Positions 25,991-63,597 of a stretch of DNA of 64,000 nucleotides are shown here, in pieces. This DNA is from Pristiophorus japonicus (Eukaryota): positions 62,434,001 through 62,498,000 of the forward strand of contig NC_091997.1 in the NCBI RefSeq assembly GCF_044704955.1, given 5' to 3'. Under the pieces are notes generated by a model, which worked only from the letters and a program-made list of their open reading frames with translations, did no database searches and was not told where the DNA came from. The stretch's first letter is position 1. The number at the start of each line of letters is the position of its first letter. The position numbers were made by a program, and so were the translations under genes.

Positions 25991-26039
25991 AAGCCTGGGG
26001 AGCCCTCAGCACTCAAACGCTTTACGGCTGCGAGAATCT

Positions 26040-41421: not shown

Positions 41422-41652
41422 GAGAAGGGCCGAGCTGGGGACCTCCAGGGAGACACGGAAAAGACAGAAACAGACAAGAAGCGGGAGAGAAGGCAGAAGA
41501 AGAAACTGAAACGTCTGCGACTGAGGGAGAAGGAGGTGCGTCGGAAAGGGTTGGAGAAGCTGAATGTGAAACTCAGCAATAAACGAGAGAAGGAAACGAA
41601 TGCTGAGAAAGTGAAGAAACTGACGCAGGAAGGCAAGGCGACACTGCTGAAG
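41422..41652 (+). CDS. MPHOSPH10: MPHOSPH10 exon 10
   Basis: EKGRAGDLQGDTEKTETDKKRERRQKKK...GKATLLK; in phase. Confidence 0.94.
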
Positions 41653-42474
41653 GTGAGTGCTGACATACGGTATTAACAGTAGGGAGAGGGCCGGCAGTGT
41701 AATGAAACTGTATAATATGCCTCGCGTTGACTGGGAGAAGGAGAAATGAAATTAATTTTACAATGTCTTATTTCCTTTGAATAATTTCTGTCCTATGGCA
41801 GTAAATCACCCTGTGAGTCCCATTGTTCCTGTCTCGAGCAATGTGTGACTGAATCAATTCCCAGCAAATGTTTCCGTTGCCTAATATTCAGTCCATTTAA
41901 CTCCCTGTACTGAATTGCAATTTCAAACAGACCTCCCCATCAGCGGCATTTATCTCTTGCATTCACTCCTCATCAAAATCTGTGTAGCTTCAGAAATATA
42001 CTGCGCTCAACAGGAAATACCCAGCAGGTCTGTCAGCATCCAAGAGAGAAAAGATAGGTTAATGTTGTGGTGGGGTCCTTGTATATAGAGTATATCTGAA
42101 ATGTTAACCTTTCCTTTCTGACCTGTGTATTTTCAGCGTTCACTGTTTTATCTCTAATCGTTGGATCAGTTCACTTTCCCAAGTTGCATTGTACCTCTGC
42201 ATTACCTGCTCGTACTTGCATACAATCTCTCTCTTAACCATCATTTACTCTGCACTCACTCCTGTATATACTGCCTGAGGCATCAGTACCCTGATTAGGA
42301 ATCTCCTGTTTAATGTCGCAGACCCTAGCACTGTCCAGCATTAGTGGAACAATCTGTATTCTCCACTCCTTTGTTTTCCCAATGTCATTCCACCATATTG
42401 TGGGGAGGAAAAAGCAAGATTTTCTATTTTAAAAATGTAACTTCGAACTGGATTTTGTTTTTAACTATTAAAAG

Positions 42475-42624
42475 GATGAAGGGAAAGATAAACCTCTGCG
42501 CTCGTCAAAGGCCTTCTTCTCCCAGTTACAAGATCAAGTGAAAGCCGAGCTGAAAGGAGCCAAGATCGGAGCCAAGAAGCAGAACAAACACAGAGAGCTT
42601 TCAGCAAGCAAACTGAAACTTTAA
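42475..42624 (+). CDS. MPHOSPH10: MPHOSPH10 exon 11 (terminal, TAA)
   Basis: DEGKDKPLRSSKAFFSQLQDQVK...ASKLKL*; total spliced CDS 1980 bp = 659 aa. Confidence 0.95.
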   Translation, partial: DEGKDKPLRSSKAFFSQLQDQVKAELKGAKIGAKKQNKHRELSASKLKL

Positions 42625-42717
42625 GCCAGACCTCTTCACTTCCTCTACAGATTGAGCCATCTGATATATAGCAGATCATTCCAAAAACCATTCTTATTTT
42701 AAACATGGTTGTTTTCT

Positions 42718-42723
42718 AATAAA
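42718..42723 (+). terminator. MPHOSPH10 polyadenylation signal
   Basis: AATAAA about 95 bp after the stop, followed by T/GT-rich sequence. Confidence 0.7.
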
Positions 42724-43024
42724 ATATTGATTTTCTCTATTTTGTACAGTGTTACTTTGTCAGACTCCCAGCTCCTGCGATAGAACTATATCCGGCATAA
42801 ACTCAGTCATACAGACCAGTGTGACAAAAAGCATTGTTTTCTAGGTTGGATTGTAACTTATTCGTTACAACATACACAACTGGTAACGGCAAGCAATTTC
42901 TGCAGAGTATACACATCTTAGACTGATTGATGCACATAACTTGATTGGATGGAAACCTGTCTGACAGATCAGTCTGGAGCAGGCCAACTATTCAATTCAA
43001 ATACAAACATCCATTGGGCTGTTT

Positions 43025-43310
43025 ACATAGAAACATAGAAAATAGGTGCAGGAGTAGGCCATTCGGCCCTTCTAGCCTGCACCGCCATTCAATGAGTTCA
43101 TGGCTGAACATTCAACTTCAGTACCCCATTCCTGCTTTCTTGCCATACCCCTTGATCCCCCGAGTAGTAAGGACTTCATCTAACTCCTTTTTGAATCTAT
43201 TTAGTGAATTGGCCTCAACTACTTCCTGTGGTAGAGAATTCCACAGGTTCACCACTCTCTGGGTGAAGAAGTTCCTCCGCATCTCGGTCCTAAATGGCTT
43301 ACCCCTTACG
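43025..43310 (-). mobile_element. CR1 LINE 3' fragment
   Basis: (CATAGAAA)2 AATAGGTGCAGGAGTAGGCC tail as at 29247. Confidence 0.85.
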
Positions 43311-43644
43311 GTACCTTTTTTTTGGCAGCTCGATCAGTTTGGGCAAATGCCGTTAGGAATCCTGGAAATTAATGTTTTTAATGTCTGCTTGTTCAGGAAT
43401 GTCTTCAAGAAGATTTGGAGTTATATCTTGGATGGTATTGGCTGGAGCCAGCAGCGGTGAGCCTGCAGGATACCGCCAGAAGACCCATTGGGTGGGCAGT
43501 GGGGAATCTAGTGTCTATACTGCGTCAACTAACACAATAATTACAGTCAGTCCTGTTGTGTGTTGAGGTGAGATGGGGCTCGGGCTGTGACTGCCCGCGC
43601 CGGCCTGAGGAGACTCAGGATAAACAGCAAGTCTGGGGAAAGGG

Positions 43645-44455
43645 TTGTGATTGGCGGGTCGGTGGAAGGGACGGGCTGTGATTGGCGGGTCGGTGGAAGG
43701 GACGGGCTGTGATTGGCGGGCCGGTGGAATGCGCGGGTTATGATTGGCGGGGCGGTGGAAGGCGCGGCTATGATTGGCGGGGCGGTGGAGGGGCGGGCCG
43801 GTGCAAGGCGCGGGCTATGATTGGCGGGCCGGTGGAAGGCGCGGCTGTGAGTGGAGGGGCGGGCTGTGATTGGCGGGCCGGTGCAAGGCGCGGGCTATGA
43901 TTGGCGGGGCGGTGGAAGGCGCGGCTATGATTGGCGGGGCGGTGGAAGGCGCGGCTGTGATTGGAGGGGCGGGCTGTGATTGGCGGGCCGGTGGAATGCG
44001 CGGGCTATGATTGGCGGGGCGGTGGAAGGCGCGGCTATGATTGGCGGGGCTGTGGAAGGCGCGGCTGTGATTGGAGGGGCGGGCTGTGATTGGCGGGCCG
44101 GTGCAAGGCGCGGGCTATGATTGGCGGGGCGGGCCGGTGCAAGGCGCGGGCTATGATTGGCGGGCCGGTGGAGGGGCGGGCTGGTGCAAGGCGCGGGCTA
44201 TGATTGGCGGGGCGGTGGAGGGGCGGGCCGGTGCAAGGCGCGGGCTATGATTGGCGGGCCGGTGGAAGGCGCGGCTGTGAGTGGAGGGGCGGGCTGTGAT
44301 TGGCGGGCCGGTGCAAGGCGCGGGCTATGATTGGCGGGGCGGGCCGGTGCAAGGCGCGGGCTATGATTGGCGGGCCGGTGCAAGGCGCGGGCTATGATTG
44401 GCGGGGCGGGCCGGTGCAAGGCGCGGGCTATGATTGGCGGGCCGGTGGAAGGCGC
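43645..44455 (+). promoter_or_regulatory. FAN1 promoter minisatellite: about 24 inverted CCAAT boxes interleaved with GC boxes
   Basis: ~30-bp units GATTGGCGGG(G/C)CGGTG(G/C)AAGGCGCGGGCTAT ending 15 bp before the FAN1 ATG. Confidence 0.8.
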
Positions 44456-44469
44456 CGGCTCTCCGCTCG

Positions 44470-45025
44470 ATGACTTCCCCGGACAGAAAGCGGCCGCGGG
44501 GCCGCCTCTCTCTCCGAGCCCGAAGGCGGGAATCTTCCGCCGGCCGTGGTTTCGGGGCCACAGCACCGCCCCCACGAAACTGCGGGTCCGGGGCGGCGGG
44601 TGAGCGGGGCGGCAGCTGCGGGCCCGCGGGCCGCCCGCTCTCCAAACTCTCCCGGCGGCTCTGGAGAGCGAGAGGCTGCGGGCCCGGAGCGGCCCCCGGG
44701 GACGGCCCGGAGCCCGACCCCAGCCCAGGCCCGGAGGCCGGAGAGAGGGTGAGGGATCCGGGGCCCGACCCCAGTCCAGGCCCGGAGGCCGGAGAGAGGG
44801 TGAGGGATCCAGGCCCGGAGCCCGACCCCAGTCCAGGCCCGGAAGCGGGGGATCCAGGCCCGGAGGCCGGAGAGGCGCTGGGGGCCGCGGGCCGGGACAC
44901 GGACCCAGCGCCCTATTACCTCGCGAACTTTGTGACGGTGCTGGCCGCCGTGCTCGGGAGCGAAGATAAAGAACTTTTCGATGAAGAAGACCGGGGCTGG
45001 ATTGGAACATTCCAGCAACTATCAG
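44470..45025 (+). CDS. FAN1: FAN1 (Fanconi-associated nuclease 1) coding exon 1; short N-terminus without a recognisable UBZ4
   Basis: MTSPDRKRPRGRLSL resembles the recalled human PPDKKRPRRSLS; PYYLANFVTVLAAVL...LFDEEDRGWIGTFQQLS resembles PYYLRSFLVVLKTVL...FYQLS; donor G|GTATCC, phase 1. Confidence 0.85.
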
Positions 45026-45149
45026 GTATCCCCGCTGGGAAATGGCGGCAGGCTTTGGGTCCAGAGGAACCTCTCCCCAGGCCGGAGCCCCCCCCGAGCA
45101 CCGGGGAAGCTGGTTGTTGGAGGCCCCGGGCCATGTCCTCAGGGCTGTG

Positions 45150-48100
45150 CCACCTCCAGCTGCTTCAATGACCTTCCCTCCACCATAATGTCAGAAGTGG
45201 GGATGTTTGCTGATGACTGCAGTGTTCAGTGCCATTCACAACTCCTCCGATAACGGAGCAGTCCGTGCCCGCCTGCAGCAAGACCTGAACAACATTCAGG
45301 CTTGGGCTGCTAAGTGGCAAGTAACATTCATGCCACACAAGTGCCAGGCAATGACCATCTCCAACAAGCGAGAGTCTAACCACCTCCCCTTGACATTCAG
45401 TGACATTACCATCGCCGAATCCCCCGCCATCAGCATCCTGCGGGGGGATCACCATTGACCAGAAACTTAACTGGACCAGCCACATAAATACCGTGGCAAC
45501 AAGAGCAGGTCAGAGGCTGGGTATTCTGCGGACTCCCCAAAGCCTTTCCACCATCGACAAGGCACAAGTCAGGAGTGTGATGGAATACTCTCCACTTACC
45601 TGGATGAGTGCAGCTCCAACAACACCCAAGAAACTCGACACCATCCAGGACAAAACAGCCGCTTATAAGAACATAAGAATTAGGAACAGGAGTAGGCCAT
45701 CTAGCCCCTCGAGCCTGCTCCGCCATTCAACAGCTGATCTGGCCGTGGACTCAGCTCCACTTACCCGCCCGCTCCCCATAACCCTTAATTCCCTTATTGG
45801 TTAAAAATCTATCTATCTGTGATTTAAATATATTCAATGAGCTAGCCTCAACTGCTTCCTTGGGCAGAGAATTCCACAGATTCACAACCCTCTGGGAGAA
45901 GAAATTCCTTCTCAGCTCTGTTTTAAATTGGCTCCCCCGTATTTTGAGGCTGTGCCCCCTAGTTCTAGTCTCCCCGACCAGTGGAAACAACCTCTCTGCC
46001 TCTATCTTGTCTATTCCTTTCATTATTTTAAATGTTTCTATAAGATCACCCCTCATCCTTCTGAATTCCAACGAGTAAAGACCCAGTCTACTCAATCTAT
46101 CATCATAAGGTAACTCCCTCATCTCCAGAATCAGCCTAGTGAATCGTCTCTGTACCCTCTCCAAAGCTAGTATATTCTTCCTTAAGTAAGGTGATTAAAA
46201 CTGCACGCAGTACTCCAGGTGCGGCCTCACCAATACCCTGTACAGTTGCAGCAGGACCTCCCTGCTTTTGTACTCCATCCCTCTCGCAATGAAGGCCAAC
46301 ATTCCATTCGCCTTCCTGATTATCTGCTGCACCTGCAAACTAACTTTTTGGGAATCACGCACAAGGACCCCCAGGTCCCTCTGCACCGCAGCATGTTGTA
46401 ATTTCTCCACATTCAAATAATATTCCCTTTTACTGTTTTTTTTTTTCCCCCAAGGTGGATGACCTCACACTTTCCGACATTGTATTTCATCTGCCATCCT
46501 TAGACCATTCGCTTAACCTATCTAAATCTCTCTGCAGCCTCTCTGTGTCCTCTACACAACCCGCTTTCCCACTAATCTTTGTGTCATCTGCAAATTTTGT
46601 TACACTACACTCTGTCCCCTCTTCCAGGTCATCTATGTATATTGTAAACAGTTGTGGTCCCAGCACCGATCCCTGTGGCACACCACTAACCACCAATTTC
46701 CAACCCGAAAAGGACCCATTTATTCCGACTCTCTGCTTTCTGTTAGCCAGCCAATTCTCGATCCATGCTAATACATTTCCTCTGACTCCGCGTACCTTTA
46801 TCTTCTGCAGTAACCTTTTGTGTGGCACCTTATCGAATGCCTTCTGAAAATCTAAATACACCACATCCATCGGTACACCTCTATCCACCATGCTCGTTAT
46901 AGCTTCAAAGAATTCCATTAAATTAGTTAAACATGATTTCCCCTTCATGAATCCATGCTGAGTCTCCTTGATTGCACTATTCCTATCTAGATGTCCTGCT
47001 ATTTCTTCCTTAATGATAGTTTCAAGCATTTTCCCCACTACAGATGTTAAACTAACCAGCCTATAGTTAGTTACCTGCCTTTTGTCTGCCCCCTTTTTTA
47101 CAAAGCGGCGTTACATTAGCTGCTTTCCAATCTGCTGGTACCTCCCCAGAGTCCAGAGAATTTTGGTAGATTATAACGAATGCATCTGCTATAACTTCCG
47201 CCATCTCTTTTAATACCCTGGGACTTGTCTACCTTGAGTCCCGTTAGCCTGTCCAGCACTACCCCCCTAGTGATAGTGATTGTCTCAAGGTCCTCCCTTC
47301 CCACATTCCTGTGACCAGCAATTTCTGGCATGGTTTCTGTGTCTTCCACTGTGAAGACCGAAGCAAAATAATTGTTTAAGGTCTCAGCCATTTCCCATTA
47401 TTAAATCCCCCTTCTCATCTAAGGGACCAACATTTACTTTAGTCACTCTTTTCCGTTTTATATATCTGTAAAAGCTTTTACTATCCGTTTTTATGTTTTG
47501 CGCAAGTTTACCTTTGTAATCTATCTTTCCTTTCTTTATTGCTTTCTTAGTCATTCTTTGCTGTCGTTTAAAATTTTCCCAATCTTCTAGTTTCCCACTA
47601 ACCGTGGCCACCTTATACGCATTGGTTTTTAATTTGATCCTCTCCTTTATTTACTTGGTTATCCACGGCTGGTCATCCCTTCTCTTACCGCCCTTTTTCA
47701 CTGGAATATATTTTTGTTGAGCACTATGAAAGAGCTCCTTAAAAGTCCTCCACTGTTCCTCAATTGTGCCACCGTTTAGTCTGTGTTCCCAGTCTACTTT
47801 AGCCAACTCTGCCCTCATCCCACTGTAGTCCCCTTTGTTTAAGCATAGTACGCTCGTTTGAGACACTACTTCCTCACCCTCAATCTGTATTACAAATTCT
47901 ACCATACTGTGATCACTCATTCCAAGAGGATCTTTTACTAGGAGATCGTTTATTATTCCTGTCTCATTACACAGGACCAGATCTAAGATAGCTTGCTCCC
48001 TTGTAGGTTCTGTAACATACTGCTCTAAGAAACAATCCCATATGCATTCTATGAATTCCTCCTCCAGGCTACCCCGTGCGATTTGATTTGACCAATCGAT

Positions 48101-49040
48101 ATGTAGGTTAAAATCCCCCATGATTACTGCCGTTCCTTTTTCACATGCCTCCATTATGCCCCACCGTGAAGTTATTATTTGGGGGCCGATAAACTTTGCC
48201 CAACAGTGACTTTTTCCCCTTACTATCTCTAATCTCCACCCACAATGATTCAACATTTTGTTCATTAGAGCCAATATCGTCTCTCACAACTGCCCTGATA
48301 TCATCCTTTATTAACAGAGCTACCCCACCTCCTTTCCCTTCTTGTCTATCTTTCCGAATCGTCAGATACCCCTGTATGTTTAATTCCCAGTCTTGGCCAC
48401 CCTGCAACCACGTTTCTGTAATGACCACCAAATCATACCCATTTGTAATGATTTGTGCCATCAACTCATTTACTTTATTTCGAATGCTGCGTGCATTTAG
48501 GTAGAGTGTTTTAATACTAGTTTTTAAACCATGATTTTTAGTTTTGACCCCTCCTGCAGCCCCTTTATATTCAGTGGCCCTTTTTGTTTTTTGCCTTGGG
48601 TTTCTCTGCCCTCCACTTTTACTCATCATCTTTCTGTCTTTTTGGCACCCCATCCGTTTGATTGGCACCCCATCCCCCACCTTAAACATTCACTCCCTCC
48701 ACCACCAGCACACCATGGCTGCAGTATATGCTATTCACAAGATGCACTGCAGCATCTCCCAAACCCGCAACCTCTACCACCTAGAAGGACAAGGGCAGCA
48801 GGCGCATGGGAACACCACCACCTGCAAATGCCCCTCCAAGTCACACACCATTCTGACTTGGAAATATATCGCTGTTACTTCATCGTCGCTGGGTCAAACT
48901 CCTGGAACTCCCTAACAGCACTGTGGGAGCACCTTGGCTACACGGAGGGTCACCACCACCTTCCCGAGGGCAATTGGAGAAGGACAATAAATGCTAGCCT
49001 TGTTGGTGACGCTCACGTCCCATGAACAAAAGAAACAAAA
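45150..49040. mobile_element. Nested LINEs in FAN1 intron 1: plus-strand LINE 3' part (45150-45664 plus ~48641-49040) interrupted by a minus-strand CR1 (45665-48640; APE plus RT)
   Basis: Host sequence GCCGCTT|GATTGGCACCCC is split; CR1 peptides LYLNARSIRNK, ITETWL and [13 protein letters not shown]. Confidence 0.93.
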
Positions 49041-49613
49041 ACAATAGAGTCGGCTGAGCCACGCTGAATTTGCAATCGACATCAGTGAATCTAACCTGGG
49101 TGCTAGTTAGCCTCAGTACCGCAGGGTACAGGGATCCCACCTTCCAGTCACTTCGTCTGGAAAATGCACCTGTGGATATCGAGTGAGAGCCATTTGCTAA
49201 GATGCATCCCACGATTAAATATTGTGGTGACACTTTTAACACATGAAATTTTTTTCATCCAATTTACTTTTGAAAGTTACTATTGAATCTGCTTCCACCC
49301 ACCGTTTCATTCCATATCACAACTCGTTGTGTAAAGAAATTCTCATCTTCCCTCTGGTTTTTGCTAACTATATTAAATCTGTGTCCTCTGGTTACTGACC
49401 CTCTTGCCACTGGAAAGTTTTTCTTTATTTACTGCATTAAAACCCCTCAATTTTGAACACCTCTATTGGACACATTCTAAATGGTAACCTAACCATTTTA
49501 TAAAGGTTTAGCATAAGTTCTGTGCCATATGCTTTTTTAACAGCCTTGTCCTGTCCCCAGTTTGGGTCTGTTAGTCTCGTAGTAGTTACTGGATGCTCCC
49601 CTCTTGTCTTCAG

Positions 49614-49754
49614 CTGCCGGCCAGAAGCTCTACGTGAGACTCTTTCAACGGAAGCTGAATTGGCTAAAAGTGAGCAGGCTGGATTATGCTGAGATTGGCC
49701 TGGATCTGACCCCCACCATCGAAGAGCTGAGTCTCGCTGGCTTGTTACAAACAG
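49614..49754 (+). CDS. FAN1: FAN1 exon 2
   Basis: [19 protein letters not shown]...AGLLQT. Confidence 0.96.
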
Positions 49755-50465
49755 GTATAGGAATCCCTCATCCAGGGCGGGTTTTAATCAGAACATTGAA
49801 GCTTGCTGCATTACTGATTTTAAAATCCTTCTCTTCATCTTCAGCTCTCCCCGCATCCTCGTCCCCCGCTCTCCCCGTGCCATTGTTCCCCGCTATCCCA
49901 CGCCACCCACTCTCCCCGCATCCTCGTCCCCCGCTCTCCCCGTGCCATTGTTCCCTGCTATCCTCTCACTCTCCACTCTCCCCATGGCTTTGTTCCCCCC
50001 CGCTCTCCCCATGGCCTCGCCCCCGCCCTTTCCAGCCCTACACCTGCTACTCTACGATTCTTTGACTGGCCTGTTATACCGCCCCAGCCTCGGCCCTCCA
50101 TTGGATCAGGGTCTTCAGCCACCTTGGCCACTCTGCAACTCTCTCTCCAAACCCTGCCCCTCGCCTTTTTAAAAACCTTCTCAAATACCATCATTTCCAC
50201 CAAGCTTTTGGTAAACTCGCCCCCATTGTCTCATTGCTTGCTTCTTTATTCCTTTTATGAGTATCTCCCCCAAAAGTGAAGGGTTTCGGGGGCTTTCACT
50301 GTTCTGGATGCTGAGTAGATGTACCTGGGGCACAGGATGTTTTAAAGTACACCTGAGTCATCCAGCATTGGGTACGTCCGCGATAGTGTGGGGTCATGGG
50401 TCAGTGGATACCGTTCGCCAGGGCCCTGTGTGTTTATTCTCTGACGATGTCCTTTCCCCCCACAG

Positions 50466-50664
50466 GGTCGGAACTGTGCGACATCTCCGAGGCCCTGGAC
50501 CTGCTGTCAGCCCCTGAGCTCAAACTATTGGCTAAAACCTTCCACCTGCAACCCCGGGGTCAGAGGGCGGAGATCCTGGGGTCCCTGCTCCAGTTGGGCA
50601 AGCAGAAATCGATCTTCAGTAGTGACCGGAACCCATCGAGCCCCGGCTCCGCCATCCTCAACAG
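50466..50664 (+). CDS. FAN1: FAN1 exon 3 (SAP domain)
   Basis: SELCDISEALDLLSAPELKLLAKTFHL...; phase-2 donor AG|GTTCTT (weak). Confidence 0.88.
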
Positions 50665-51134
50665 GTTCTTCAACAGGCGCCACTTAACCTTCGGAGCGGA
50701 GTGCACACTACCTGCGGGAAGGGTATAGGGGGGGAAGGGAGCGGCAACGAGGGGAGAGAAGGGGCAGCGAGGGTGGGGAAGAGGCAGAGGGGGGCAGCGA
50801 GGGTGGGGAAGGAGCAGTGAGGGTGGGGCAGCACAGGTGGGGTGTGGAATACCTACTCGGGGAGGGATTGCAAGCCATCTAGCACGATGGACCTAGAGGA
50901 CGTTCCTCGTCCTTTGAGGCGAATAGCATAGAGACTTTGAAGGGGAAGCTGGATAAACAAGATGCTGGAGAAAGGAGTAGAGGGATATGCTGATAAGGTG
51001 AGATGAAGGCGGGAGGAGACTCGTGTGGACATAAACACGGCATGGACCAGTTGTGCCAAATGACCTCTTTCAGTGCTGTGAATTCTCTAATTCTGTGTGT
51101 TTACCAGCCTGCGTTTAATGGTATGTGTTGTCAG

Positions 51135-51368
51135 GGTGAAGGAGCTGGTCGGACGGTGTGTGAAAGTCACTGCGCCAGCCCGTGCAGTGTTCTCACGGGT
51201 TTTGCTACTTTTCTCTCTGACTGAGTCGACGGATGAAGAGGAGGCGGCCAGTGCTGGACAGAGTCAGCTGTCCACAGTGCTCATGGTCAACATGGGACAC
51301 GTCGTCTTCCCCAGTTACAGCGTGCTGAGGGAGACCAAAATCTTTCGACACAGGGACGACCTACTCAG
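51135..51368 (+). CDS. FAN1: FAN1 exon 4
   Basis: RAVFSRVLLLFSLTESTDEEEAASAGQSQLSTVLMVNMG...IFRHRDDLLR. Confidence 0.96.
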
Positions 51369-51436
51369 GTGACAACACACTCTGATCACTTCAATAAATA
51401 GGGCAGGCACAGAGTTAACAGGATAAATCCACCATT

Positions 51437-52147
51437 CGGTGTGGGGGAGGGGGGCCCGGTGTGGGACTAAGCCCTGGGGAGCACTGCCCAGTGTGGGACT
51501 GAGCCCCAGGGTGCAGGGCCTGCTGTGGGACGGAGCCCCGGGGAGGGGGTCCCCGGTGTGGGACTGAGCCCCAGGGAGCAGGGCCCTGTGTGGGACCGAG
51601 CCCCGGGGAGGGGGTCCCCGGTGTGGGACTGAGCCCCAGGGAGGGGGGCCCGGTGTGGGACTGAGCTCCGGGGAGCGGGGCCCTGTGTGGGACTGAGCCC
51701 CGGGGAGCACTCCCCAGTGTGGGACTGAGCCCCAGGGAGGGGGTCCCGGTGTGGGACTGAGCCCCGGGGAGAGGGTCCCCGGTGTGGGACTGAGCTCCGG
51801 GGAGCAGGGCCCGGTGTGGGACCGAGCCCCGGGGAGGGGGTCCCCGGTGTGGGACTGAGCCCCAGGGAGGGGGGCCCGGTGTGGGACTGAGCTCCGGGGA
51901 GCGGGGCCCTGTGTGGGACTGAGCCCCGGGGAGCACTCCCCAGTGTGGGACTGAGCCCCAGGGAGGGGGTCCCGGTGTGGGACTGAGCCCCAGGGAGCAG
52001 GGCCCTGTGTGGGACCGAGCCCCGGGGAGAGGGTCCCCGGTGTGGGACTGAGCTCCGGGGAGCAGGGCCCAGTGTGGGACTGAGCCCCAGGGAGGGGGTC
52101 CCCGGTGTGGGGCTGAGCTCCGGGGAGCAGGGCCCTGTGTGGGACTT
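51437..52147. repeat. 31/32-bp G-rich minisatellite in FAN1 intron 4
   Basis: Unit GGTGTGGGACTGAGCCCCGGGGAGGGGGTCCC with variants. Confidence 0.95.
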
Positions 52148-52403
52148 GATGGAAAGTCAATGTATGAGCAGATAAATTAATGTATAATGGGTGGATATAT
52201 GAGTAGATTGTTTGAAGAAGAGGTGGGTGATGCTCCCTAACACGATTACACAGCATTAGGCTGTTTGTGCAATTTTGATTTCTGAAGCAGAAATGCTGTC
52301 ATTTTAAATGAAACGACGGGCTATTTGTTTCATAGTGGGTGTTGACATGTGTTCCCCGACGGGTGAATGTTCCTTGATGGGTGAATTGTGTGTTCCCGGA
52401 CAG

Positions 52404-52535
52404 ATACGACGCAGCCGTGCATTCTCTGGCCGAGGTGGGGAATGCCATGAGCAATGGGACCTGGAGTGATGCCCTTCAGATTTATAAAAATGCCAGAGAG
52501 AAGTGGAGCTCGCTGGAGAACAGCAGTGACGTCAG
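52404..52535 (+). CDS. FAN1: FAN1 exon 5
   Basis: YDAAVHSLAEVGNAMSNGTWSDALQIYKNAREKW; phases match neighbouring exons. Confidence 0.92.
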
Positions 52536-52972
52536 GTAATGTGAGGGATGCACAGCATGCTCACAACCATCCGTGTCGGGTGGTAACCCTCATGGGGGAA
52601 TCTAGAACCAGGGGGCACAGTCTCAGAACAAGGGGTCGCCTATTTAAAACAGAAATGAGGAGGAATTTCTGCTCTCCATTTCTTATGTTAATGGGGAAAA
52701 GACCCCCACCAGGCAGCACTGCCCCCCCCCCCCCCCGGGCAATATCCATTGAGGAGCTTTGTGCAGCTTTGTATTTAGAGGCACTTTGTTAATCCCATAA
52801 CTGGGAGGCTGGTGACAGCGACTGCGGGAACATACATTTCAGGGAACTGGGGAACACCCGTTCCTGTCTCCCTGGGAAAGCTCAGATGGGGGGTTGGGAG
52901 AAGTGGGTCCAGGAGAGAATGGACCTGAATAACAGCACTGTGCCTTTATATGAAGTCTTGAATGTAATTATT

Positions 52973-54248
52973 AAGAACATAAGAAATAGGAACAGGAGTA
53001 GGCTAAACGGCCCCTTGAGCCTGCTCCGCCATTTAATACGATCATGGCTGATCCGATCATGGACTCGGACTCAGTTTCACTTTCCTGTCCGCTCCCCATA
53101 ATGCCTTATCCCCTTATCTTTTAAGAAATTGTCTATTTCTGTCTTAAATTTATTCAATGCCACAGCTCTCTGAGGCAGCGAATTCCACATATTACAACCC
53201 TCAGAGAAGAAATTCCTTCTCATCTGTTTTAAATGGGCGATCCTTTATTCTAAGATCATGCCCCCTAGTTCTAGTCTCCCCCATCAGTGGAAACACCCTT
53301 TCTGCATCCACCTTGTCAAGCCCCCTCATAATCTTATACGTTTCGATAAGATCACCTCTCATTCTTCTGAATTCCAATGAGTAGAGGCCCAACCTACTCA
53401 ACCTTTCCTCATAAGTCAACCCCCTCATCCCCGGAATCAACCGAGTGAACCTTCTCTGAACTGCCTCCAAAGCAAATATATCCTTTCGTAAATATGGAAA
53501 CCAAAACTGCACGCAGTACTCCAGGTGTGGCCTCACCAATACCTTATATAGCTGTAGCAAGACATCCTTGCTTTTATACTCCATACCCTTTGCAATAAAG
53601 GCCAAGATACCATTGGCCTTTCTGATCACTTGCTGTACCTGCATACTATCCTTGTGTTTCATGCACAAGTGCCCCCAGATCCTGCTGTACTACAGCACTT
53701 TGCAATCTTTCTCAATTTAAATAATAACTTGCTCTTTGATTTTTTTCTGCCAAAGTGCATGACCTCACACTTTCCAACATTATACTCCATCTGCCAAATT
53801 TTTGCCCACTCACTTAGCTTGTCTATGTCCTTTTGCAGATTTTTTGTGTCTTCCTCACACATTGCTTTTCCTCCCATCTTTGTATCATCAGCAAACTTGG
53901 CTACGTTACACTCGGTCCTTTCTTCCAAGTCGTTAATATGGATTGTAAATAGTTGGGGTCCCAGCACTGATCCCTGCGGCACCCCACTAGTTACAGGTTG
54001 CCAACCAGAGAATGAACCATTTATCCCGACTCTGTTCTCTGTTAGTTAGCCAATCCTCTATCCCCAACCCTGTGAACTTTTATCTTGTTCAGTAACCTTT
54101 TATGTGGCACCTTGTCAAATGCCTTCTGGAAGTTCAAATACACCACATCCACTGGTTCCCCTTAATCCACCCTGTTCGTTACATCCTCAAAGAACTCCAG
54201 TAAATTTGTCAAACATGACTTCCCTTCATAAATCCATGCTGACTGCCT
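52973..54248 (-). mobile_element. 5'-truncated CR1 LINE
   Basis: [18 protein letters not shown] and LVRPHLEYCVQFW motifs; (ATAAGAAC)n tail. Confidence 0.93.
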
Positions 54249-54744
54249 GACCCAGGGTGTTTCACAGAGACACAAAGTGATAATAAAAGAAGAATTGGAG
54301 AGGTGACCAACGGCATGTCCATGTTGGGTATTCAGGCATTTAAGGAGGGCGTTCCAGAATATTGAGCTAAGACAGCTGGAGGTTGTGCTTCTCAAAGTGG
54401 GGTGAACGGGGGGTGGGGGTAAGGCCAGAGTTGGAAGAGTGGAGCGTGAGTGCTGGTGTGAGGCTGGGGGAGGTTGCAGAGGGGGGCAGGGTGGATCTGA
54501 AGCCATAGTTAATAAGGATCTTGAATTCAATGTGGAAATTGGCAAGGATGCAGGAAAGGAGAACATGACTTAGTGCGTGATCACATGTAAGCAGCAGAGC
54601 TTTGGACAAGTTGGAGTTTGTGTAGGATGGAGTTGAGGAAGCTGAAGAATGAATGAGGGTTTCAGCAGTGGTGGGTGTTCAGCGGGTGGCAATAGGCAGT
54701 TTTACAAGATTGGGTATGAGCTATGGAACAATTTTAACAGAGGA

Positions 54745-54905
54745 GCAGAGTAAAGCGTTCTCTACACTGTCCCATCAAACACTCCCAGGGCGTATAGCAC
54801 GGGTTAGATACAGAGTAAAGCTCCCTCTACACTGTCCCATCAAACACTCCCAGGGCAGGTACAGCACGGGTTAGATACAGAGTAAAGCTCCCTCTACACT
54901 GTCCT
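54745..54905. repeat. Satellite B, short array (2-3 units)
   Basis: Same unit as 1162-2335. Confidence 0.9.
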
Positions 54906-55170
54906 AACAATGTTCCTCATTAATCCTGCCTACTGCCCCAGTGAGTAATGTGAGCGCTGTCACACTGTACCTGTGCTGTGGACTCGGGTCCCGCAGGGAC
55001 AGGTTGAGACTGGCCAAGGTCTGTAACAGCGAGCAGAGAGATGGGTTTGAGCCCAGGACTCTGAGGGCAACGTCCGATCCCCAACACCCTAGTCGCACTA
55101 AACAAACATTACCTGGCCAGTGTGTTTCTTTTTCATTTTAGAATGGGTGACTAATATTGGTTAATTTTAG

Positions 55171-55279
55171 GTTCTGTCGGGAGCTCCCGGTGTACCTGCG
55201 ATGTTTCACTGCGGGCTGGATCTACACGCGCATCCGATTCCGTGGGGTTGAAGTTTTACAGCGGCTGCACATGTACCAG
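55171..55279 (+). CDS. FAN1: FAN1 exon 6
   Basis: [33 protein letters not shown]. Confidence 0.96.
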
Positions 55280-55312
55280 GTAAAAAATGCAAAATTACAC
55301 AAGAAAAGCGCA

Positions 55313-55550
55313 GTGACCCGGCAACTGGTTATAGTGATCTGGTGACCCGGTGCCAGTTAGTGATCCGGTGCGAGGGCTCGGTGCCAGTTAGTGATCCGAT
55401 GACCCGGTGCGAGGGCTCGGTGCCAGTTAGTGATCTGGTGACCCGGTGCGAGGGCTTGGTGCCAGTTAGTGACCCGGTGCGAGGGCTCGGTGCCAATTAG
55501 TGACCCGGTGCGAGGGCTCGGTGCCAGTTAGTGATCTGGTGACCCTGTGC
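55313..55550. repeat. ~31-39-bp minisatellite
   Basis: GACCCGGTGCGAGGGCTCGGTGCCAGTTAGTGATC variants. Confidence 0.85.
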
Positions 55551-55634
55551 AGGGGTGCAAGTAGGTTGTGTTGACGAGAGGATTGAAGCTGCTGGTGTCG
55601 GATGTTAAACCCTGTCTTCGAATCTCATTCTCAG

Positions 55635-55754
55635 GAGGCGGTGGAGGAATTGCAAAGCCTTTTGGAGCAAAGCATCTTTTGTCCAGAGAGCCGTGGGCTG
55701 TGGTGGGATCGGCTGAGTCTGAATCTCCAGCAGCATCTGAAACGGCCCGATCAG
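55635..55754 (+). CDS. FAN1: FAN1 exon 7
   Basis: [40 protein letters not shown]. Confidence 0.96.
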
Positions 55755-56059
55755 GTACTGCTGACGACGAGGGCCAGTGTGGCTGCTGCTTACTGTGATG
55801 TCATTGCCGAGTCCTTATGTATTTCCGGGCATTGATCCTGATGAGGCAGGTCCCACTATGGTGATCAGTCACAGGATCTCTTTCTCTCCCCGCCCACCCC
55901 CCCCCCCGTGTCTGACACAGTGCAGGGGATCACACCCCACTACCACCGACTGCTCTGTGATCTTGATCAGGTTTGATCAATAACTAGGTCCAGGTAACCT
56001 GGTTGAAGAATGCTCACGATGGAAGCTGATTTGAACTCACTGACTCACTCCTCAGATTA

Positions 56060-57030
56060 TTCTGTTCGAGTGTTGATGTGGTGTACCTGGACTTCGAAAA
56101 GTTGTTTGATAAAGTGCCACATAATAGGCTTGCAAGCAAAGTTGAAGCTAATGGATTACAAGGGACAGTGGCAGAATGGATACGGAATTGGCTAAGTGAC
56201 GGGCAACAGAGTAGTGGTGACCAGTTGTTTTTCGGACTGGAGGAAGGTATACAGTGGGGTTCCCCAGGGGTCGGTACTGGGACCACTGCTTTTCATAATA
56301 TATATTAATGATTTAGACTTGGGTGTACAGGGCACAATTTCAAAATTTGCAGATGACAAAACTTGGAAGTATAGTGATAGACAGGCTGGTGGAATGGGTG
56401 GACATATAGCAGATAAAATTTAATGCTGAAAAGTGATACATTTTGGTAGGAAGAATGAGATAAGACAATATAAACTAACGGCTACAATTCTAAAGGGGGC
56501 ACATGAACACGGAGACCAAGGGTATATGTGCACAAATCATTGAAGGTGGCAGGGAAGGTTGAGAAAGCGGTTAAAAAAGCTTACAGGATCCTGGGCTTCA
56601 CAAATAGAGACAGAGTACAAAAGCAAGGAATTATGATGAACATTTATAAAATACTAGTTCAGCCTCAACTGGAGCATTGTATCCAATTCTGGGCCCCGCA
56701 CTTTAGGAAGGATGTGAAGGCCTTGGAGACGGTGCAGGGGAGATTTACAAGAATGGTTCCAGGGACGAGGGACTTCAGTTACATGGATAGACTGGAGAAG
56801 CTGGGATTGGTTTCCTGGAGGGGTCCAGACAGAGTCGAGAGAAACTGTTCCCATTGGCAGAAGGGTCGAGAACCAAAGGACACAGATTTAAGGTAATTGG
56901 CAGAAGAACCAAAGGCGACATGAGGAAAAACATTGCGGGAAAGGGCAGGGAAGTGGGACTAGCTGAGGTGCTCCTGCAGAGAGCCGGCACGGGCCGAACG
57001 GCCTCCTGTGCTGTGACCATTCTCTGATTC
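56060..57030 (+). mobile_element. Sense-oriented degraded CR1 LINE ending at the FAN1 exon 8 acceptor
   Basis: [27 protein letters not shown] and KFADD motifs; 3' tail GGGCCGAACGGCCTCCTGTGCTGTGACCATTCTCTGATTC. Confidence 0.88.
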
Positions 57031-57033
57031 CAG

Positions 57034-57198
57034 GCAATCGGCTGTGTGCGGGAAGGGCTGAACGATGCTCAGGTACAGACGGGACATCGCCTGGCGCTAC
57101 ACCAGCGGGCAATGCGGATACGTGACTCCCCAAGCTGCAAGAAATGGCGCCACCTTCTTCAGGATCTGCCAGTGATGGGAGTGGAAGATGTGCCGCAT
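57034..57198 (+). CDS. FAN1: FAN1 exon 8
   Basis: AIGCVREGLNDAQVQTGHRLALHQRAMRIRDSPSCKK...EDVPH; GTGAGT donor. Confidence 0.94.
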
Positions 57199-57217
57199 GT
57201 GAGTGTACCAGCAACAT

Positions 57218-57412
57218 TCACCCCGCCCGTCTAAACCTCACGTTCCTCATCACCCCGCCCGTCTAAACCTCACATTCCTCATCACCCCGCTCGTCTAAAC
57301 CTCACATTCCTCATCACCCCGCCCGTCTAAACCTCACGTTCCTCATCTCCCATCACCCCGCCCGTCTAAACCTCACATTCCTCATCACCCCGCCCGTCTA
57401 AACCTCACATTC
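57218..57412. repeat. 32-bp minisatellite (about 6 units)
   Basis: TCACCCCGCCCGTCTAAACCTCACATTCCTCA. Confidence 0.9.
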
Positions 57413-57902
57413 TTCAAGGGTCTGGTGTGGATGATTTTATTTAAATCCTTTTATTGACTGCGTTATTTCCACAAATCTGTCTCGGGTCTGACTGGGTCCA
57501 CTAACTCGCCATTGATTGTCTGGGACATCAGCAGAGCCCCCCGCTGCCTGAGGGGGGAGATTTGACCCCGTTTACCCCACTACCCCTCCTGATGCTCGCT
57601 GAGTACCTGAAAATTGAAAAGTGTCTTAAATCATTGTCATCTAATGGCCCTGATTCTATGCTGTAAAATTCTGTCATGTATATTTTCTATTTAAATGTAA
57701 TCCTATATATTGTTCTAATAGCTCCGGGGCTCAGTTCCACACCGGGCCCTGCTTTCCCACACCCTGGGCAGGGCCTTTACCCACTGAGCCAATAAAGGAG
57801 CCTCTTAATTCACCCTTTAATATATATTTCAGGATAATGGTGCCCTGGGAGCCAGGCTGCATCTGAACAGGTTTTAATTGCTGGTTTTAATTTTCTTTGT
57901 AG

Positions 57903-58056
57903 GTGACAGTGAAGGGCAGAGCCTGCCCGGGGATGGGTAATGCCTTGTTCCTGATGGAACGCACCAGTGAGGGGGAGGGGGAGTCTTGCTCCACAGTGAT
58001 CTGTTCGGTGGAGGAGGTTTCTCTGGCTCACTACCAGCGGCAAGGCTTCGATCAGG
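57903..58056 (+). CDS. FAN1: FAN1 exon 9
   Basis: [10 protein letters not shown]...[22 protein letters not shown]. Confidence 0.95.
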
Positions 58057-58135
58057 GTAATCACCAAATCAGCTCACATTGATTGCTGCTGAGGTGCGAA
58101 GACTGTGTGCAGTGATCTGTCGCTCTGTGTTTCAG

Positions 58136-58239
58136 GGATACACGGTGAAGGAGCCACCTTCTTAACGCTATTCGGACTTCTCTTCTGGGAAATCATCTTC
58201 CTGCCCGGAATCCCGGATGTTTTCCGGAATCCGTATCAG
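58136..58239 (+). CDS. FAN1: FAN1 exon 10
   Basis: [35 protein letters not shown]; follows a 79-bp intron. Confidence 0.96.
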
Positions 58240-58580
58240 GTATTTGGCTGAAGGGTTGCTTCTCCCAGACTAGGGTACGTACCTTGGGCAGGGATTGGGG
58301 GAAGCGTGTCGATTCATTCAAATGCAAAATAGATCCATTTCTTTCAGAAATTGACAGATACCATATTGGAGTAATGTCAGACATGCCGTGGGGTGAATGC
58401 TGCGTATTCGGGAGGGACAGGTAACTTTGGAGCCCTGCTCCCAAAGCTCTCCAGCACTGGGTCTGTTGTATACTCATTGATCGAGATTGTTGGGATCCGA
58501 GGAGAACCAGGGTCTTTTTTTAGTCCAGTGATGACTACAGTGCCCTGATAAATGTGATTAATGGTGTATTTCTGCCCCAG

Positions 58581-58775
58581 GCTTGCCCTCTGGATCTCTA
58601 CACCGAGTGTTTCTATCAGCACCGGAGGGAGCCCATTGAATCGAGGCTTGAGATCCTGCAAGATGCCCCCACAGGAACCCTCCACACACTCATCGCCAAC
58701 GTGTGGAACAGTCACAAAGGCACAGCAGCCACGTTAGTCAACTGGGAGATCTTCAGCTCTCTTCAGCAGGCCCAG
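58581..58775 (+). CDS. FAN1: FAN1 exon 11
   Basis: ACPLDLYTECFYQHRREPIESRL...LVNWEIFSSLQQAQ. Confidence 0.96.
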
Positions 58776-58819
58776 GTACATAGCTTCTACCCCAGTATTA
58801 TAGTGATAGACCTGTACCC

Positions 58820-61800
58820 ATAAAAATTAACAGGAGTAGGCCATCGAGCCTGCTCCGCCATTCAACAAGATCATGGCGGATCTGGCCGTGGACTCAGCTC
58901 CACTTACCCGCCCGCTCCCCGTAACCCTTAATGGTTCAAAATCTATCTTATCTATGATTTGAATACATTCAATGAGCTAGCCTCAACTGCTTCCTTGGGC
59001 AGAGAATTCTACAGATTCACAACCCTCTGGGAGAAGAAATTCCTTCTCAACTCGGTTTTAAATTGGCTGTGCCCCCTAGTTCTCGTCGCCCCGACCAGTG
59101 GAAACAACCTCTCTGCCTCTATCTTGTCTATCCCTTTCATCATTTTAAATGTTTCTATAAGATCACCCCTCATCCTTCTGAACTCCAACGAGTAAAGACC
59201 CAGCCTACTCAATCTATCATCATAAGTAATCTCTGAAATCAGCCTAGTGAATCGTCTCTGTACCCCCTCCAAAGCTAGTATATCCTTCCTTAATTAAGGT
59301 GACCAAAACTGCACGCAGTACTCCAAGTGCGGCCTCACCAATACCCTATACAGTTGCAGCAGGACATCCCTGCTTTTGTACTCCATCCCTCTTGCAATGA
59401 AGGCCAACATTCCATTTGCCTTCCTGATTACCTGCAAACTAACTTTTTGGGATTCATGCACAAAGATCCCCAGGTCCCTCTGCATGTTGTAATTTCTCCC
59501 CATTCAAATATTCCCTTTTACTGTTTTTTTTCCCCCCCAAGGTGGATGACCTCTCATTTTCCGACATTATATTCCATCTGCCAAACCTTAGCCCATTCGC
59601 TTAACTTATCTAAATCTCTCTGTCGTCTGCACAACCCGCTTTCCCACTAATCTTTGTGTCATCTGCAAATTTTGTTACACTACACTCTGTCATCTATGTA
59701 TATTGTAAACAGTTGTGGTCCCAGCACCGATCCCTGTGGCACACCACTAACCACCGATTGCCAACCAGAAAAGGACCCATTTATCCCGACTCTCTGCTTT
59801 CTGTTCGCCAGCCAATTCTCTATCCATGCTAATACATTTCCTCTGACTCCGCATACCTTTATCTTCTGCAGTAACCTTTTGTGTGGCACCTTATCGAATG
59901 CCTTTTGGAAATCCAAATACACCACATCCATCGGTACACCTCTATCCACCATGCTCGTTCTATCCTCAAAGAATTCCAGTAAATTAGTTAAACATGATTT
60001 CCCCTTCATGAATCCATGCTGCGTCTGCTTGATTGCACTATTCCTATCTAGATGTCCCGCTATTTCTTCCTTAATGATAGCTTCAAGCATTTTCCTCACT
60101 ACAGATGTTAAACTAACCGGCCTATAGTTACCTGCCTTTTGTCTGCCCCCTTTTTTAAACAGAGGCGTTACATTAGCTGCTTTCCAATCTGCTGGTACCT
60201 CCCCAGAGTCCAGAGAATTTTGGTAGATTATAACGAATGCATCTGCTATAACTTCCGCCATCTCTTTTAATACCCTGGGATGCATTTCGTCGGGACTCAA
60301 GGTGGACAAGTCCCCTGGTCCTATTAGCCTGTCCAGCACTACCTCCCTAATGATTATCTCAAGGTCCTACATTCCCGTGACCAGCAATTTTTGGCATGGT
60401 TTTTGTGTCTTCCACGCTGAAGACCAAAGCAAAATAATTGTTTATGGTCTCAGCCATTTCCACATTTCCCATTATTAAATCCCCCTTCTCATCTTCTAAG
60501 GGACCAACATTTACTTTAGTCACTCTTTTCTGTTTTATATATTGGTAAAAGCTTTTACTATCTGTTTTTATGTTTTGCGCATCTTTCCTCTCTTAGCCAT
60601 TCTTTGCTGTCATTTAAAATTTTCCCACTAACCTTGGCCACCTTATACGCATTGGTTTTTAATTTGATACTCTCCTTTATTTCCTTGGTTATCCCTTCTT
60701 TTTCACTGGAATATATTTTTGTTGAGCACTCTGAAAGAGCTCCTTAAAAGTCCTCCACTGTTCCTCAATTGTGCCACCGTTTAGTCTGTGTTTCCAGTCT
60801 ACTTTAGCCAACTCTGCCCTCGTCCGCTTTAAGCATAGTACGCTCGTTTGAGACACTACTTCCTCACCCTCAATCTGTATTACAAATTCAACCATACTGT
60901 GATCACTCATTGCAAGAGGATCTTTTATTATTCCTGTCTCATTACACAGGACCAGATCTAAGATAGCTTGCTCCCTTGTAGGTTCTGTAACATACTGTTT
61001 TAAGAAACAATCCCGAATGCGCAGTCTATGAATTCCTCCTCCAGGCTACCCAGTACAATTTGATTTGACCAATCGATATGTAGGTTAAAATCCCCCATGA
61101 TTACTGCCGTTCCTTTTTCACATGCCTCCATTATTTCCTTGATTATTGCCTGCCCCACCGTGAAGTTATTATTTGGGGGCCTATAAACTACGCCCACCAG
61201 TGACTTTTTCCCCTTACTATCTCTAATCTCCACCCACAATGATTCAACATTTTGTTCATTAGAGCCAATATCGTCTCTCACAACTGCCCTGATATCATCC
61301 TTTATTAACAGAGCTACCCCACCTCCTTTCCCTTCTTGTCTATCACCCCTGTATGTTTAATTCCCAGTCTTGGCCACCCTGCAACCACGTTTCAGTAATG
61401 GCCACCAAATCATACCCATTTGGAATGATTTGTGCCGTCAACTCATTTACTTTACCTAAATGCACGCAGCATTCGAAAAGTGTGTTTTAATACTAGTTTT
61501 TAAACCTCCTGCAGCCCCTTCCTATCACCTTGTGGTTTACACTTACCCCAGTGCTACTCTGCTCTGTTGCCTCCTGCCTTTTGCATTCTTTCTTGGAGAT
61601 CTGTTCATCTGAGCTCTCACCCACTCTAACTAGCTCAGAGCCCTCTCCTGGATTCCCATCCCCCTGCCAAACTAGTTGAAAGCCCTCCCACCCGCGAGAA
61701 CATTGGTCCCGTCTCTGTTGAGGTGTAACCTGTCCGACTTGTACAGGTCCCACCTACCCCAGAAGCGGTCCCAATTGTTCAGGAAACTAAAACCCTCCCC

Positions 61801-62675
61801 TCCTACACCAATGCCCCAGCCACGTATTTATCTGACTAGCCTTCCTATTTCTACCCTCACTAGTACGTGGCACTGGCAGTAATCCCGAGATTACCATCTT
61901 TGAGGTCCTGGCTTTCAATCTTACGCCTAGCTCCCTAAACTCAGCTTTCAGGACCTCGCCCGTCTACCAATGTGAACCACAACCACTGGCTGTTCCCCTT
62001 CCCTCCCCAGAATGCCCTGCAGTCGCTCAGTGACATCATTGACCCTTGCACCAGGGAGGCAACACACCATCCTGATAGTTTTGCTGCCGCAGAAGCGCCT
62101 ATCCGCTCCCCTCACTATTGAATCTCTTATCGCTATAGCCCTTCCCGTCTTTCTCTTCCCCCCATGTGCAGCTGAGCCACCCACGGTGCTGTAGACTTGG
62201 CCCTGGCTGCACTCCCCAGAGGCATCACCGCCCTCGCCAGAATAGCCTCAGGGGACTCCTGCACTACCTGCCTCGCCATACTCTTGTGTGCAACGGTCAC
62301 CCATTCCCTGTACACTTTTAATCTGTGGGGTGACCAACGCCTGAAACGAGCTATCCACGTGCCTCTCGGATGCTCCTCGGTGCCTCCAGTCCTCGCTCAA
62401 GCTCCGAGACTCGGCGGTCGAGTTGGAGGAGCTGGAGACACTTCCTGCACATGTGGTCATCCCCGTTGCGGGAAGCATCCAGGAATTCCCACATGGCACA
62501 GGTGTTGCATTCCGTTTGAACGAGCTGCCCTGCCATCCCACTAGTTACCCTTAAATTACCCAGCAAAAACACTGACTCCCAGCTATTTAGTAATTTATCC
62601 TCTTATCTATTAGAACACAAAATCAAAGATATACTCACCAGCCAACCACTTACCAGCTTGGCTGTGACGTCACTT
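58820..62675 (-). mobile_element. Apparently full-length but decayed CR1 LINE (ORF1 zinc finger/leucine zipper plus esterase; ORF2 APE plus RT)
   Basis: MAGQLVQTECNTCAMWE...CRKCLQLLQL ORF1 start, DSIVRG esterase, VIMGDFN and RT motifs; many small deletions. Confidence 0.93.
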
Positions 62676-62920
62676 TTTGATTTCTTGTCCCTCCTCCCCG
62701 CACTGCTCACTCACCGACTGCCCCAGTGTTAGACAGTGACAGACCTGTACCCACCAGTACTGTACCCTACAGTGACAGACCTGTACCCACCAGCACTGTA
62801 TCCCAGTGTTATACAGTGACAGGATGAAAATTTCCCTCACTGAAAGGACTGTCATTAGCAGATTTGTAGTGAAGTTGTCGCTTTAGCTGTGAATTGATGT
62901 GTTTATGGGGATCTTTTCAG

Positions 62921-63049
62921 AGCCTGGTGAGCTGCCTGGGTGGTCTGTTTCTGAGTGGCGTTTGTAGGATTCTGGCCAAGAACTTGAGGCACAGCCGTGG
63001 GGGCCTCCCTGATCTGGTGGTGTGGAGCAGCCACAGCCTCCAATACAAG
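62921..63049 (+). CDS. FAN1: FAN1 exon 12 (VRR-NUC, catalytic PD)
   Basis: [35 protein letters not shown]. Confidence 0.97.
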
Positions 63050-63459
63050 GTGAGCGAGTCTGAGGTAAGCTTACAACCGGTGTTTGTACCGAGACTGGCC
63101 GAATACCAGGGGCCTGGTCATCCCACCAGTCACAAAGTCAATACACGGATTCAGAATTGATTATTTTTCTCTGTTCTGCTCATTTCCATTCATGTAACGT
63201 CCAAAGGGTGAGACCCAGGGTCCTCAGTATTGTGATCTCACACCCTCCCAAACACACTGGGTGGCTGTGCCCATGGAGCTGTCCTGCAGGGGTGGAGGGA
63301 GGTTTTCCGGGAGAGTGCACATCCTTGCACACTGTGCTGCCTGAATATCGAATGTTCCTTTAACACAATCTCTTCCTGATTTTTATGTCTGTATTGCTGT
63401 CACACCTGAGGTGATCTCACTTTAAACGCTCCTTACCTGTTTCTCTCTTTGGTTTCCAG

Positions 63460-63597
63460 CTGGTAGAAGTGAAAGGTCCGAGTGACCGACTCTCCCACAA
63501 GCAGACAGTGTGGTTGGATCAGCTGCGGAGACTTGGGGCCGATGCGGAGGTTTGCCACGTCAGTGCGGTCGGTGCACGGAGTCACCGGCTCAGCTAA
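63460..63597 (+). CDS. FAN1: FAN1 exon 13 (VRR-NUC EVK motif, stop)
   Basis: [34 protein letters not shown]...HRLS*; total spliced CDS 2376 bp = 791 aa. Confidence 0.97.

Follow-up and report, generated by a model that had tools for sequence, protein, structure and literature searches.

FAN1 of the sawshark Pristiophorus japonicus is directly preceded by one short promoter-type element present in 26 copies. We consider it probable (roughly 60%) that this array is a working NF-Y/GC-box promoter that was amplified neutrally through the usual turnover of minisatellites, and that its proximal boxes suffice for its function. Within the 64-kb stretch of DNA analysed (the window), the array and the start of the gene are arranged as follows:

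43644..44460, + strand: minisatellite of 26 units, 19-47 bp long, of 15 unit types
44427..44469, + strand: last unit and short leader (last ATTGG, 44433; last upstream ATG, 44430)
44470..45027, + strand: first coding exon of FAN1, with the basic N-terminal motif, KLSR (MIM-like) and the start of the HTH domain

The array contains exactly 24 GATTGG boxes (43649-44437), where the original prediction had about 24, and two degenerate GAGTGG copies complete the 26 head-to-tail units. On the minus strand, 22 of the 24 boxes read CGCCAATCA, in agreement with the CCAAT reading proposed earlier, and the remaining two read CTCCAATCA. TRF finds a period of 31 and higher-order periods of 80 and 110. In 300 dinucleotide shuffles, ATTGG occurred 2.7 times on average and never more than 8 times, against 24 in the array; because shuffle tests suit tandem repeats poorly, a per-unit chance estimate (below) was used in their place. 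The FAN1 ATG at 44470 lies 37 bp past the last ATTGG and 10-15 bp past the end of the array, close to the 15 bp first reported.

The units had been described as cassettes of a CCAAT box plus a GC box. A CCAAT box is indeed present in 24 of the 26 units, but a GC box (GGGCGG) is found in 14 and both boxes together in 12. The total of 16 GGGCGG lies within what shuffled sequence gives (mean 10.5, sd 2.7, max 19), and none of the 16 in the array is part of GGGGCGGGGC. The array also has 22 copies of TTGGCGGG, which we take to resemble E2F sites, overlapping 22 boxes. E2F motifs are known to be positioned near CCAAT (PMC3730095). The array is 72% GC with a CpG observed/expected ratio of 1.21, and its top strand is G-rich (skew 0.49, G4Hunter-type mean 1.06), a property that may favour instability. 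A search of the array for strict G3 quadruplexes with loops of up to 7 bases found none, and three were found with loops of up to 12; single-strand folding gave a z of -3.1 on 20 shuffles, with a sparse centroid.

The basic unit fits the spacing of NF-Y pairs and much of the proximal array does not. Gaps between successive ATTGG boxes are 31 bp (8 gaps), 30 bp (5), 47 bp (3), 36 bp (3), 49 bp (2) and 19 bp (2). The spacing of CCAAT pairs bound by NF-Y is most commonly 30-31 bp, with peaks at 31, 41, 52 and 63 bp, and at least 24 bp is needed (PMC4982600). Thirteen of the 23 gaps are 30-31 bp. The ten that depart lie mostly close to FAN1, where six of the last eight gaps (36, 47, 47, 49, 31, 36, 31 and 36 bp) are not 30-31 bp, and the two 19-bp gaps lie under the 24-bp minimum for double NF-Y occupancy. 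Thus, the spacing of 30-31 bp claimed for the array holds as its basic period but not through its gene-proximal part. The claim of helical phasing is not supported, either by these ten gaps or by the phase coherence of the whole array (Rayleigh), which was R 0.11-0.31 at 10.2-10.6 bp per turn and reached 0.51 only at 10.0 bp per turn, one of the six periods tried. The drift of the gaps off the preferred 31/41/52 series, mainly near the gene, argues against selection on geometry.

The history of the array is partly legible in its internal repeats. Exact duplications of 147, 99, 86 and 84 bp, along with recurring strings of units, show that blocks were copied, and both GAGTGG units lie within such blocks. 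Two of the 26 units have lost the CCAAT core, apparently in a single event that was later duplicated. Purifying selection would also leave such a pattern, but the flanking positions of the unit vary about as little, so the largely intact core does not discriminate. The surroundings are rich in repeats: tandem repeats make up 19.6% of the window (61 TRF rows, 13 arrays of at least 190 bp), and 26% of 1-kb windows hold at least 190 bp of another array. Such richness would fit a short elasmobranch chromosome, where simple tandem repeats are abundant (PMC10620051). In humans, upstream regions and CpG islands show an excess of VNTRs (10.1101/2020.11.03.367367). CCAAT is a regular unit component in none of the 12 other large arrays, and the chance of finding it in a random unit is 2-6%, which makes it likely, on this post hoc argument, that the motif derived from a pre-existing promoter.

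Several other repeats in the window deserve mention in their own right. Three unrelated arrays (units of 28, 29 and 40 bp; 25541-26625) surround a putative start of MPHOSPH10 near 25781, located by eye, and the 29-bp unit, in which CAGGTAAT occurs, possibly duplicates a splice donor. A 33-bp minisatellite family occurs at 1-636 and 5357-10098, with heavy CpG decay in the 5357-10098 array, and a 67-68 bp family occurs at 1163-2334 and 54746-54904. An acidic exon of 306 aa on the minus strand (4222-5142) has no Pfam match; it looks similar to coding exon 1 of an APBA/Mint gene.

We postulate an ancestral module of about 31 bp in which a G-rich GC/E2F-like tract came after an inverted CCAAT box. 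Slippage or unequal exchange would have multiplied it, in a part of the genome that is GC-rich and prone to repeats, and the gaps of 19, 36, 47 and 49 bp could stem from block duplications and internal deletions at a later stage. Amplification of a normal promoter module had been proposed from the start; the look of the unit and its basic period of 30-31 bp support this. Many units are probably occupied by NF-Y and by factors of the Sp/KLF type, which would hold the island in an open, unmethylated state. Two to four proximal boxes probably direct productive initiation to the ~35 bp that separate 44430 from the FAN1 ATG, since transcripts begun before that point would include additional reading frames ahead of FAN1. 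More distal copies would be largely redundant, and the length of the array would therefore be tolerated rather than selected.

The gene downstream of the array is FAN1, as first proposed. The features that establish this, and those of the neighbouring gene, are:

44470..63597, + strand: FAN1 coding region, 13 coding pieces, 791 aa
42475..42723, + strand: inferred last coding exon of MPHOSPH10, with its stop at 42622-42624 and AATAAA at 42718
43026..43308, no strand assigned: dispersed repeat between MPHOSPH10 and FAN1, with 9 further matches within the window

The reading frame that opens at 44470 on the plus strand has an exon 1 with 100% identity to one database protein, the fanconi-associated nuclease 1 of P. 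japonicus. Its 791 residues were placed on 12 pieces (44470-63594) and one piece at ~62920-63050. The HTH, SAP, TPR and VRR-NUC domains and the catalytic motifs GGLPDL and EVKG, which mark the core of vertebrate FAN1, are all present. The start codon is the orthologous one, with shark, ray and bony-vertebrate FAN1 sharing the same basic N-terminal motif. An N-terminal extension of FAN1 through the array was considered and rejected: none of the 17 sense-strand ATGs within the array reads into the FAN1 frame. MPHOSPH10 lies upstream on the same strand, and we therefore also rejected a bidirectional promoter. The exon that precedes its inferred last one (41422-41652) matches Pfam Mpp10 (E 3.5e-5); the inferred last exon, searched alone against Pfam, gave no match. 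From MPHOSPH10 to the FAN1 ATG is ~1.7 kb, occupied by the dispersed repeat (280 bp) and the array, and the MPHOSPH10 AATAAA is ~0.9 kb upstream of the array.

The array also makes up the upstream half of a CpG island that begins with it:

43500..45000, no strand assigned: CpG island over the array and exon 1, GC 0.65-0.76, CpG o/e 0.84-1.2

CpG islands are usually defined by a GC content above 0.55 and a CpG o/e above 0.65 over at least 500 bp, and 500-bp windows from 43501 to 45000 exceed these values. In matched contexts, the array has 90 CG copies and one TG/CA variant (1/91), whereas the decayed fraction in three other arrays is 223/290 (67 CG), 25/55 (30 CG) and 8/24 (16 CG). Five of 11 informative comparison arrays are also without CpG decay, so the retention of CpG in the array may suggest an unmethylated state, one that youth or homogenisation can mimic. 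Fisher p-values, for CpG decay and for the protein features below, count related copies or species as independent and were not relied on.

From its position, the array would be the FAN1 promoter. The last two of its 17 ATGs open out-of-frame reading frames that overlap the FAN1 start, one of them at 44430, and the FAN1 ATG itself has a T at -3. Because upstream ATG frames run across the array, productive transcripts should start after 44430, and we infer a productive start zone within the last unit and leader (44427-44469). NF-Y is known to suppress ectopic upstream initiation that introduces uORFs (PMC6624317). NF-Y boxes typically lie ~80 bp upstream of the start (PMC3730095), whereas the last box of the array is only 37 bp from the ATG, a point against our preferred reading.

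Four public runs (of seven listed) were compared over 44391-45150. None of the listed runs is recorded as RNA; three of the four, all from one study, were taken as RNA solely because they are spliced. In three of the four, exon 1 is left at 45025 and the sequence continues as AGQKLYVRL, the start of exon 2; FAN1 is thus transcribed and spliced. One RNA-type contig covers 44461-44754. The interval 44391-44460 is without an RNA-type contig and one begins at 44461, a boundary that does not serve as evidence here: a contig does not reveal where transcription begins, and most of 44461-44700 is also missing from two of the three RNA-type runs. In the DNA run, which may be the assembly's own sample, a contig (44426-44741) joins the last unit to exon 1, and contigs also show an internal unit adjacency that occurs at 43824 and 44254. 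The contigs seen over the array reach only its last two units. Contig depths over the last units (4.0, 15.9 and 7.9) track the window's 31-mer multiplicities (3, 9 and 4), and the depth per copy is 0.3-0.45 of the flank, a value that fits a shorter allele and GC dropout equally and is not a copy number. The DNA run differs from the window by substitutions at 44637 and 45021 (third codon positions in exon 1) and by a 2-bp intron deletion at 45088; both substitutions recur in the RNA-type runs, pointing to a second haplotype.

NF-Y minisatellites, Sp1-type promoter repeats of repair genes and CCAAT arrays of LTR12 are already established, and the sawshark array is unusually long. In its anatomy it resembles the ABO, XRCC5 and LTR12 repeats, with more units, and it is a candidate VNTR. 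The ABO CBF/NF-Y minisatellite enhancer is likewise a minisatellite of a host gene with CCAAT sites in its units, and reporter output depends on repeat number; however, it is a proven VNTR with 1 or 4 units ~4 kb upstream (PMC2988417), whereas the 26 sawshark units adjoin the start codon inside a CpG island. The XRCC5 (Ku80) VNTR is similar in being a repeat with a putative Sp1 site in the proximal promoter of a DNA-repair gene, but it has 0-3 copies of a 21-bp unit, more copies give lower expression, and the unit is without CCAAT (PMC4829605). The U3 repeats of ERV9/LTR12 form long direct arrays of CCAAT units upstream of a start site and come nearest in unit number (5-17, with 14 in the globin LTR). 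They differ in being retroviral, in their thousands of copies and in their ~41-bp units with GATA sites (PMC11853044, PMC3730095); the sawshark array has no LTR anatomy and carries GC/E2F-like tracts in place of GATA sites. CCAAT-pair promoters share the direct repeats and the modal gap of 30-31 bp, and the TOP2B pair has an Sp1 site, but these are pairs or a few boxes in non-repetitive DNA (PMC4982600) where the sawshark has 24 near-identical copies, and the 36-, 47- and 19-bp gaps lie outside the preferred series of such pairs. Promoter-proximal VNTRs are common in humans (10.1101/2020.11.03.367367). Our literature search on CCAAT/NF-Y promoter VNTRs found nothing on the FAN1 locus.

Could the number of units matter? 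If the array is length-polymorphic, unit number might set FAN1 output by additive or cooperative binding of NF-Y, much as first proposed. The increase in reporter output from four-repeat ABO enhancers (PMC2988417), the effect (albeit inverse) of XRCC5 repeat number on expression (PMC4829605), the 13 of 23 gaps at the preferred spacing of NF-Y pairs and the link of human FAN1 expression variants to Huntington onset (PMC7990447) are all consistent with such a role. We nevertheless find it doubtful. Copy number need not track expression, as that of the BORIS minisatellite has no clear relation to it (PMC4973313), and of the human gene-VNTR pairs tested 193 were eQTLs (10.1101/2020.11.03.367367). 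In the sawshark, the proximal spacing is irregular, and no second array allele was seen in contigs that reach only the last two units. A different role would be that of a boundary, in which an NF-Y-bound, G-rich block stops the RNA polymerase II of MPHOSPH10, suppresses ectopic upstream starts and guards the FAN1 start. The closeness of MPHOSPH10 on the same strand makes this conceivable, and G-rich pause elements occur between close genes. A CCAAT box is reportedly part of a termination signal, going by the title of Connelly and Manley 1989. The block to upstream initiation noted above (PMC6624317) also fits. On the other side, gene order alone does not call for 24 boxes and a literature search on such a mechanism gave no relevant full text, and we judge the boundary unlikely.

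It is distinctly unlikely, in our view, that the array is not a working promoter, either because it is inert or because transcription starts further upstream and the array falls in a 5' leader or the first intron. Of the 15 exons of human FAN1, 13 are coding, and three promoters are predicted for that gene (PMC7990447); five more ATTGG lie upstream of the array at 42944-43487, and there is little space after the last box. However, inspection by eye found no AG with a long pyrimidine tract just before the ATG, the CpG island begins at the array, and a leader through the array would bring up to 17 upstream ATGs before a start with T at -3. An origin as the remnant of a retroviral LTR U3 enhancer, or as an expansion made during assembly, seems extremely improbable. 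LTR12 U3 regions with 5-17 CCAAT-bearing repeats do have gene-promoter activity (PMC11853044). The coding exon begins within 15 bp of the array, though, so LTR anatomy is absent, with no room for R/U5 between the array and the ATG. Four unit motifs are found nowhere else in the window, and the array unit had 0 matches in viral contigs; all seven runs listed belong to one organism. GC-rich repeats are, as is generally known, error-prone in assembly. Fifteen distinct unit types would be hard to produce by error, however, and the junctions in the DNA run, possibly the assembly's source, also argue against an artefact. We favour neutral amplification of a working promoter.

The FAN1 protein of the sawshark has a peculiarity of its own. 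It resembles human FAN1 in its HTH-SAP-TPR-VRR-NUC core, its catalytic motifs, its CpG-island 5' end and its MIM-like KLSR (an equation made by eye that rests on the marmoset sequence), but it is without the UBZ and the SPYF/MIP box of the human protein (PMC8424649, PMC8324060, PMC7990447). Neither element is encoded in any of the six frames of 36001-49700 or in the sawshark protein (P0001), and its N-terminus has 147 residues against a median of 391 in other hits. We compared the best 120 of 939 hits, among which 16 entries are sharks, rays or a protein of a skate cluster; two without an N-terminus were dropped, leaving 14 (13 sources). Within these best 120, a UBZ or SPYF pattern occurs in 0 of the 14 shark and ray N-termini, whereas the other 104 hits (the named ones being bony vertebrates) have UBZ in 100 and SPYF in 101. 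KLSR-like MIM residues are retained in 13 of the 14. Eight additional elasmobranch N-termini (among P0121-P0146) are all without UBZ and SPYF. P0017 (1145 aa), a FAN1 that ranks beside the elasmobranchs, retains a single CxxC of the UBZ, the first, and is without SPYF; it is possibly an intermediate state or a gene-model error. Our literature search, with little coverage of subscription journals and supplementary files, found no papers on elasmobranch FAN1, nor on the FAN1 UBZ in sharks.

Repeats are also found within the coding sequence of exon 1:

44703..44843, + strand: coding tandem repeat in FAN1 exon 1, 51 bp x 2.6, a 17-residue Pro/Gly/Asp/Glu unit

Protein-level tandem repeats, with differing units, are present in 6 of the 14 shark and ray entries versus 1 of the 104 others (best 120 of 939 hits), and three of the eight additional elasmobranch N-termini (two species) reach the repeat threshold. 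Coding repeats lie just after KLSR in P0003, P0005, P0007, P0009, P0012, P0142 and P0146, suggesting a recurrent repeat hot spot. The 5' end of FAN1 appears to gather repeats repeatedly in elasmobranchs, and the protein appears to be without one of its two MLH1 sites.

This bears on the suggestion that an array before FAN1 forms a feedback loop with a gene that modulates tandem-repeat stability. In humans, the stabilising effect of FAN1 on CAG repeats depends on its nuclease and on the SPYF box, which binds MLH1, and is independent of the UBZ (PMC8424649). A second MLH1 site, the MIM with L155 and L159, has ~40-fold synergy with the first (PMC8324060). These data concern triplet repeats, not 30-bp minisatellites, and the accessible part of a FAN1 review names no minisatellite role (PMC7990447). 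The missing MLH1 site in elasmobranchs further weakens a simple loop borrowed from human data, and the suggestion is not supported. A more elaborate version, which we think very unlikely, is that sharks and rays lost UBZ and SPYF, weakening repeat control, and that the length-variable array of the sawshark sets FAN1 dose, penalises upstream starts by means of its uATG-bearing units and blocks read-through from MPHOSPH10. If true, the dose of a repeat-processing nuclease would be controlled by a repeat, in a minisatellite-rich lineage.

The sawshark array is an extreme case, with 24 CCAAT boxes before a cellular gene compared to 4 in ABO and 5-17 in LTR12, and it lends itself, as a construct made by nature, to the question of whether NF-Y sites are additive, saturate or disperse the start site. 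The absence of UBZ and SPYF in sharks and rays is more surprising and could matter more than the array. In elasmobranch FAN1, two elements that are studied as modifiers of CAG expansion appear to have been deleted naturally, while the MIM-like motif and the nuclease are kept, so that the separate contributions of these parts may be testable.
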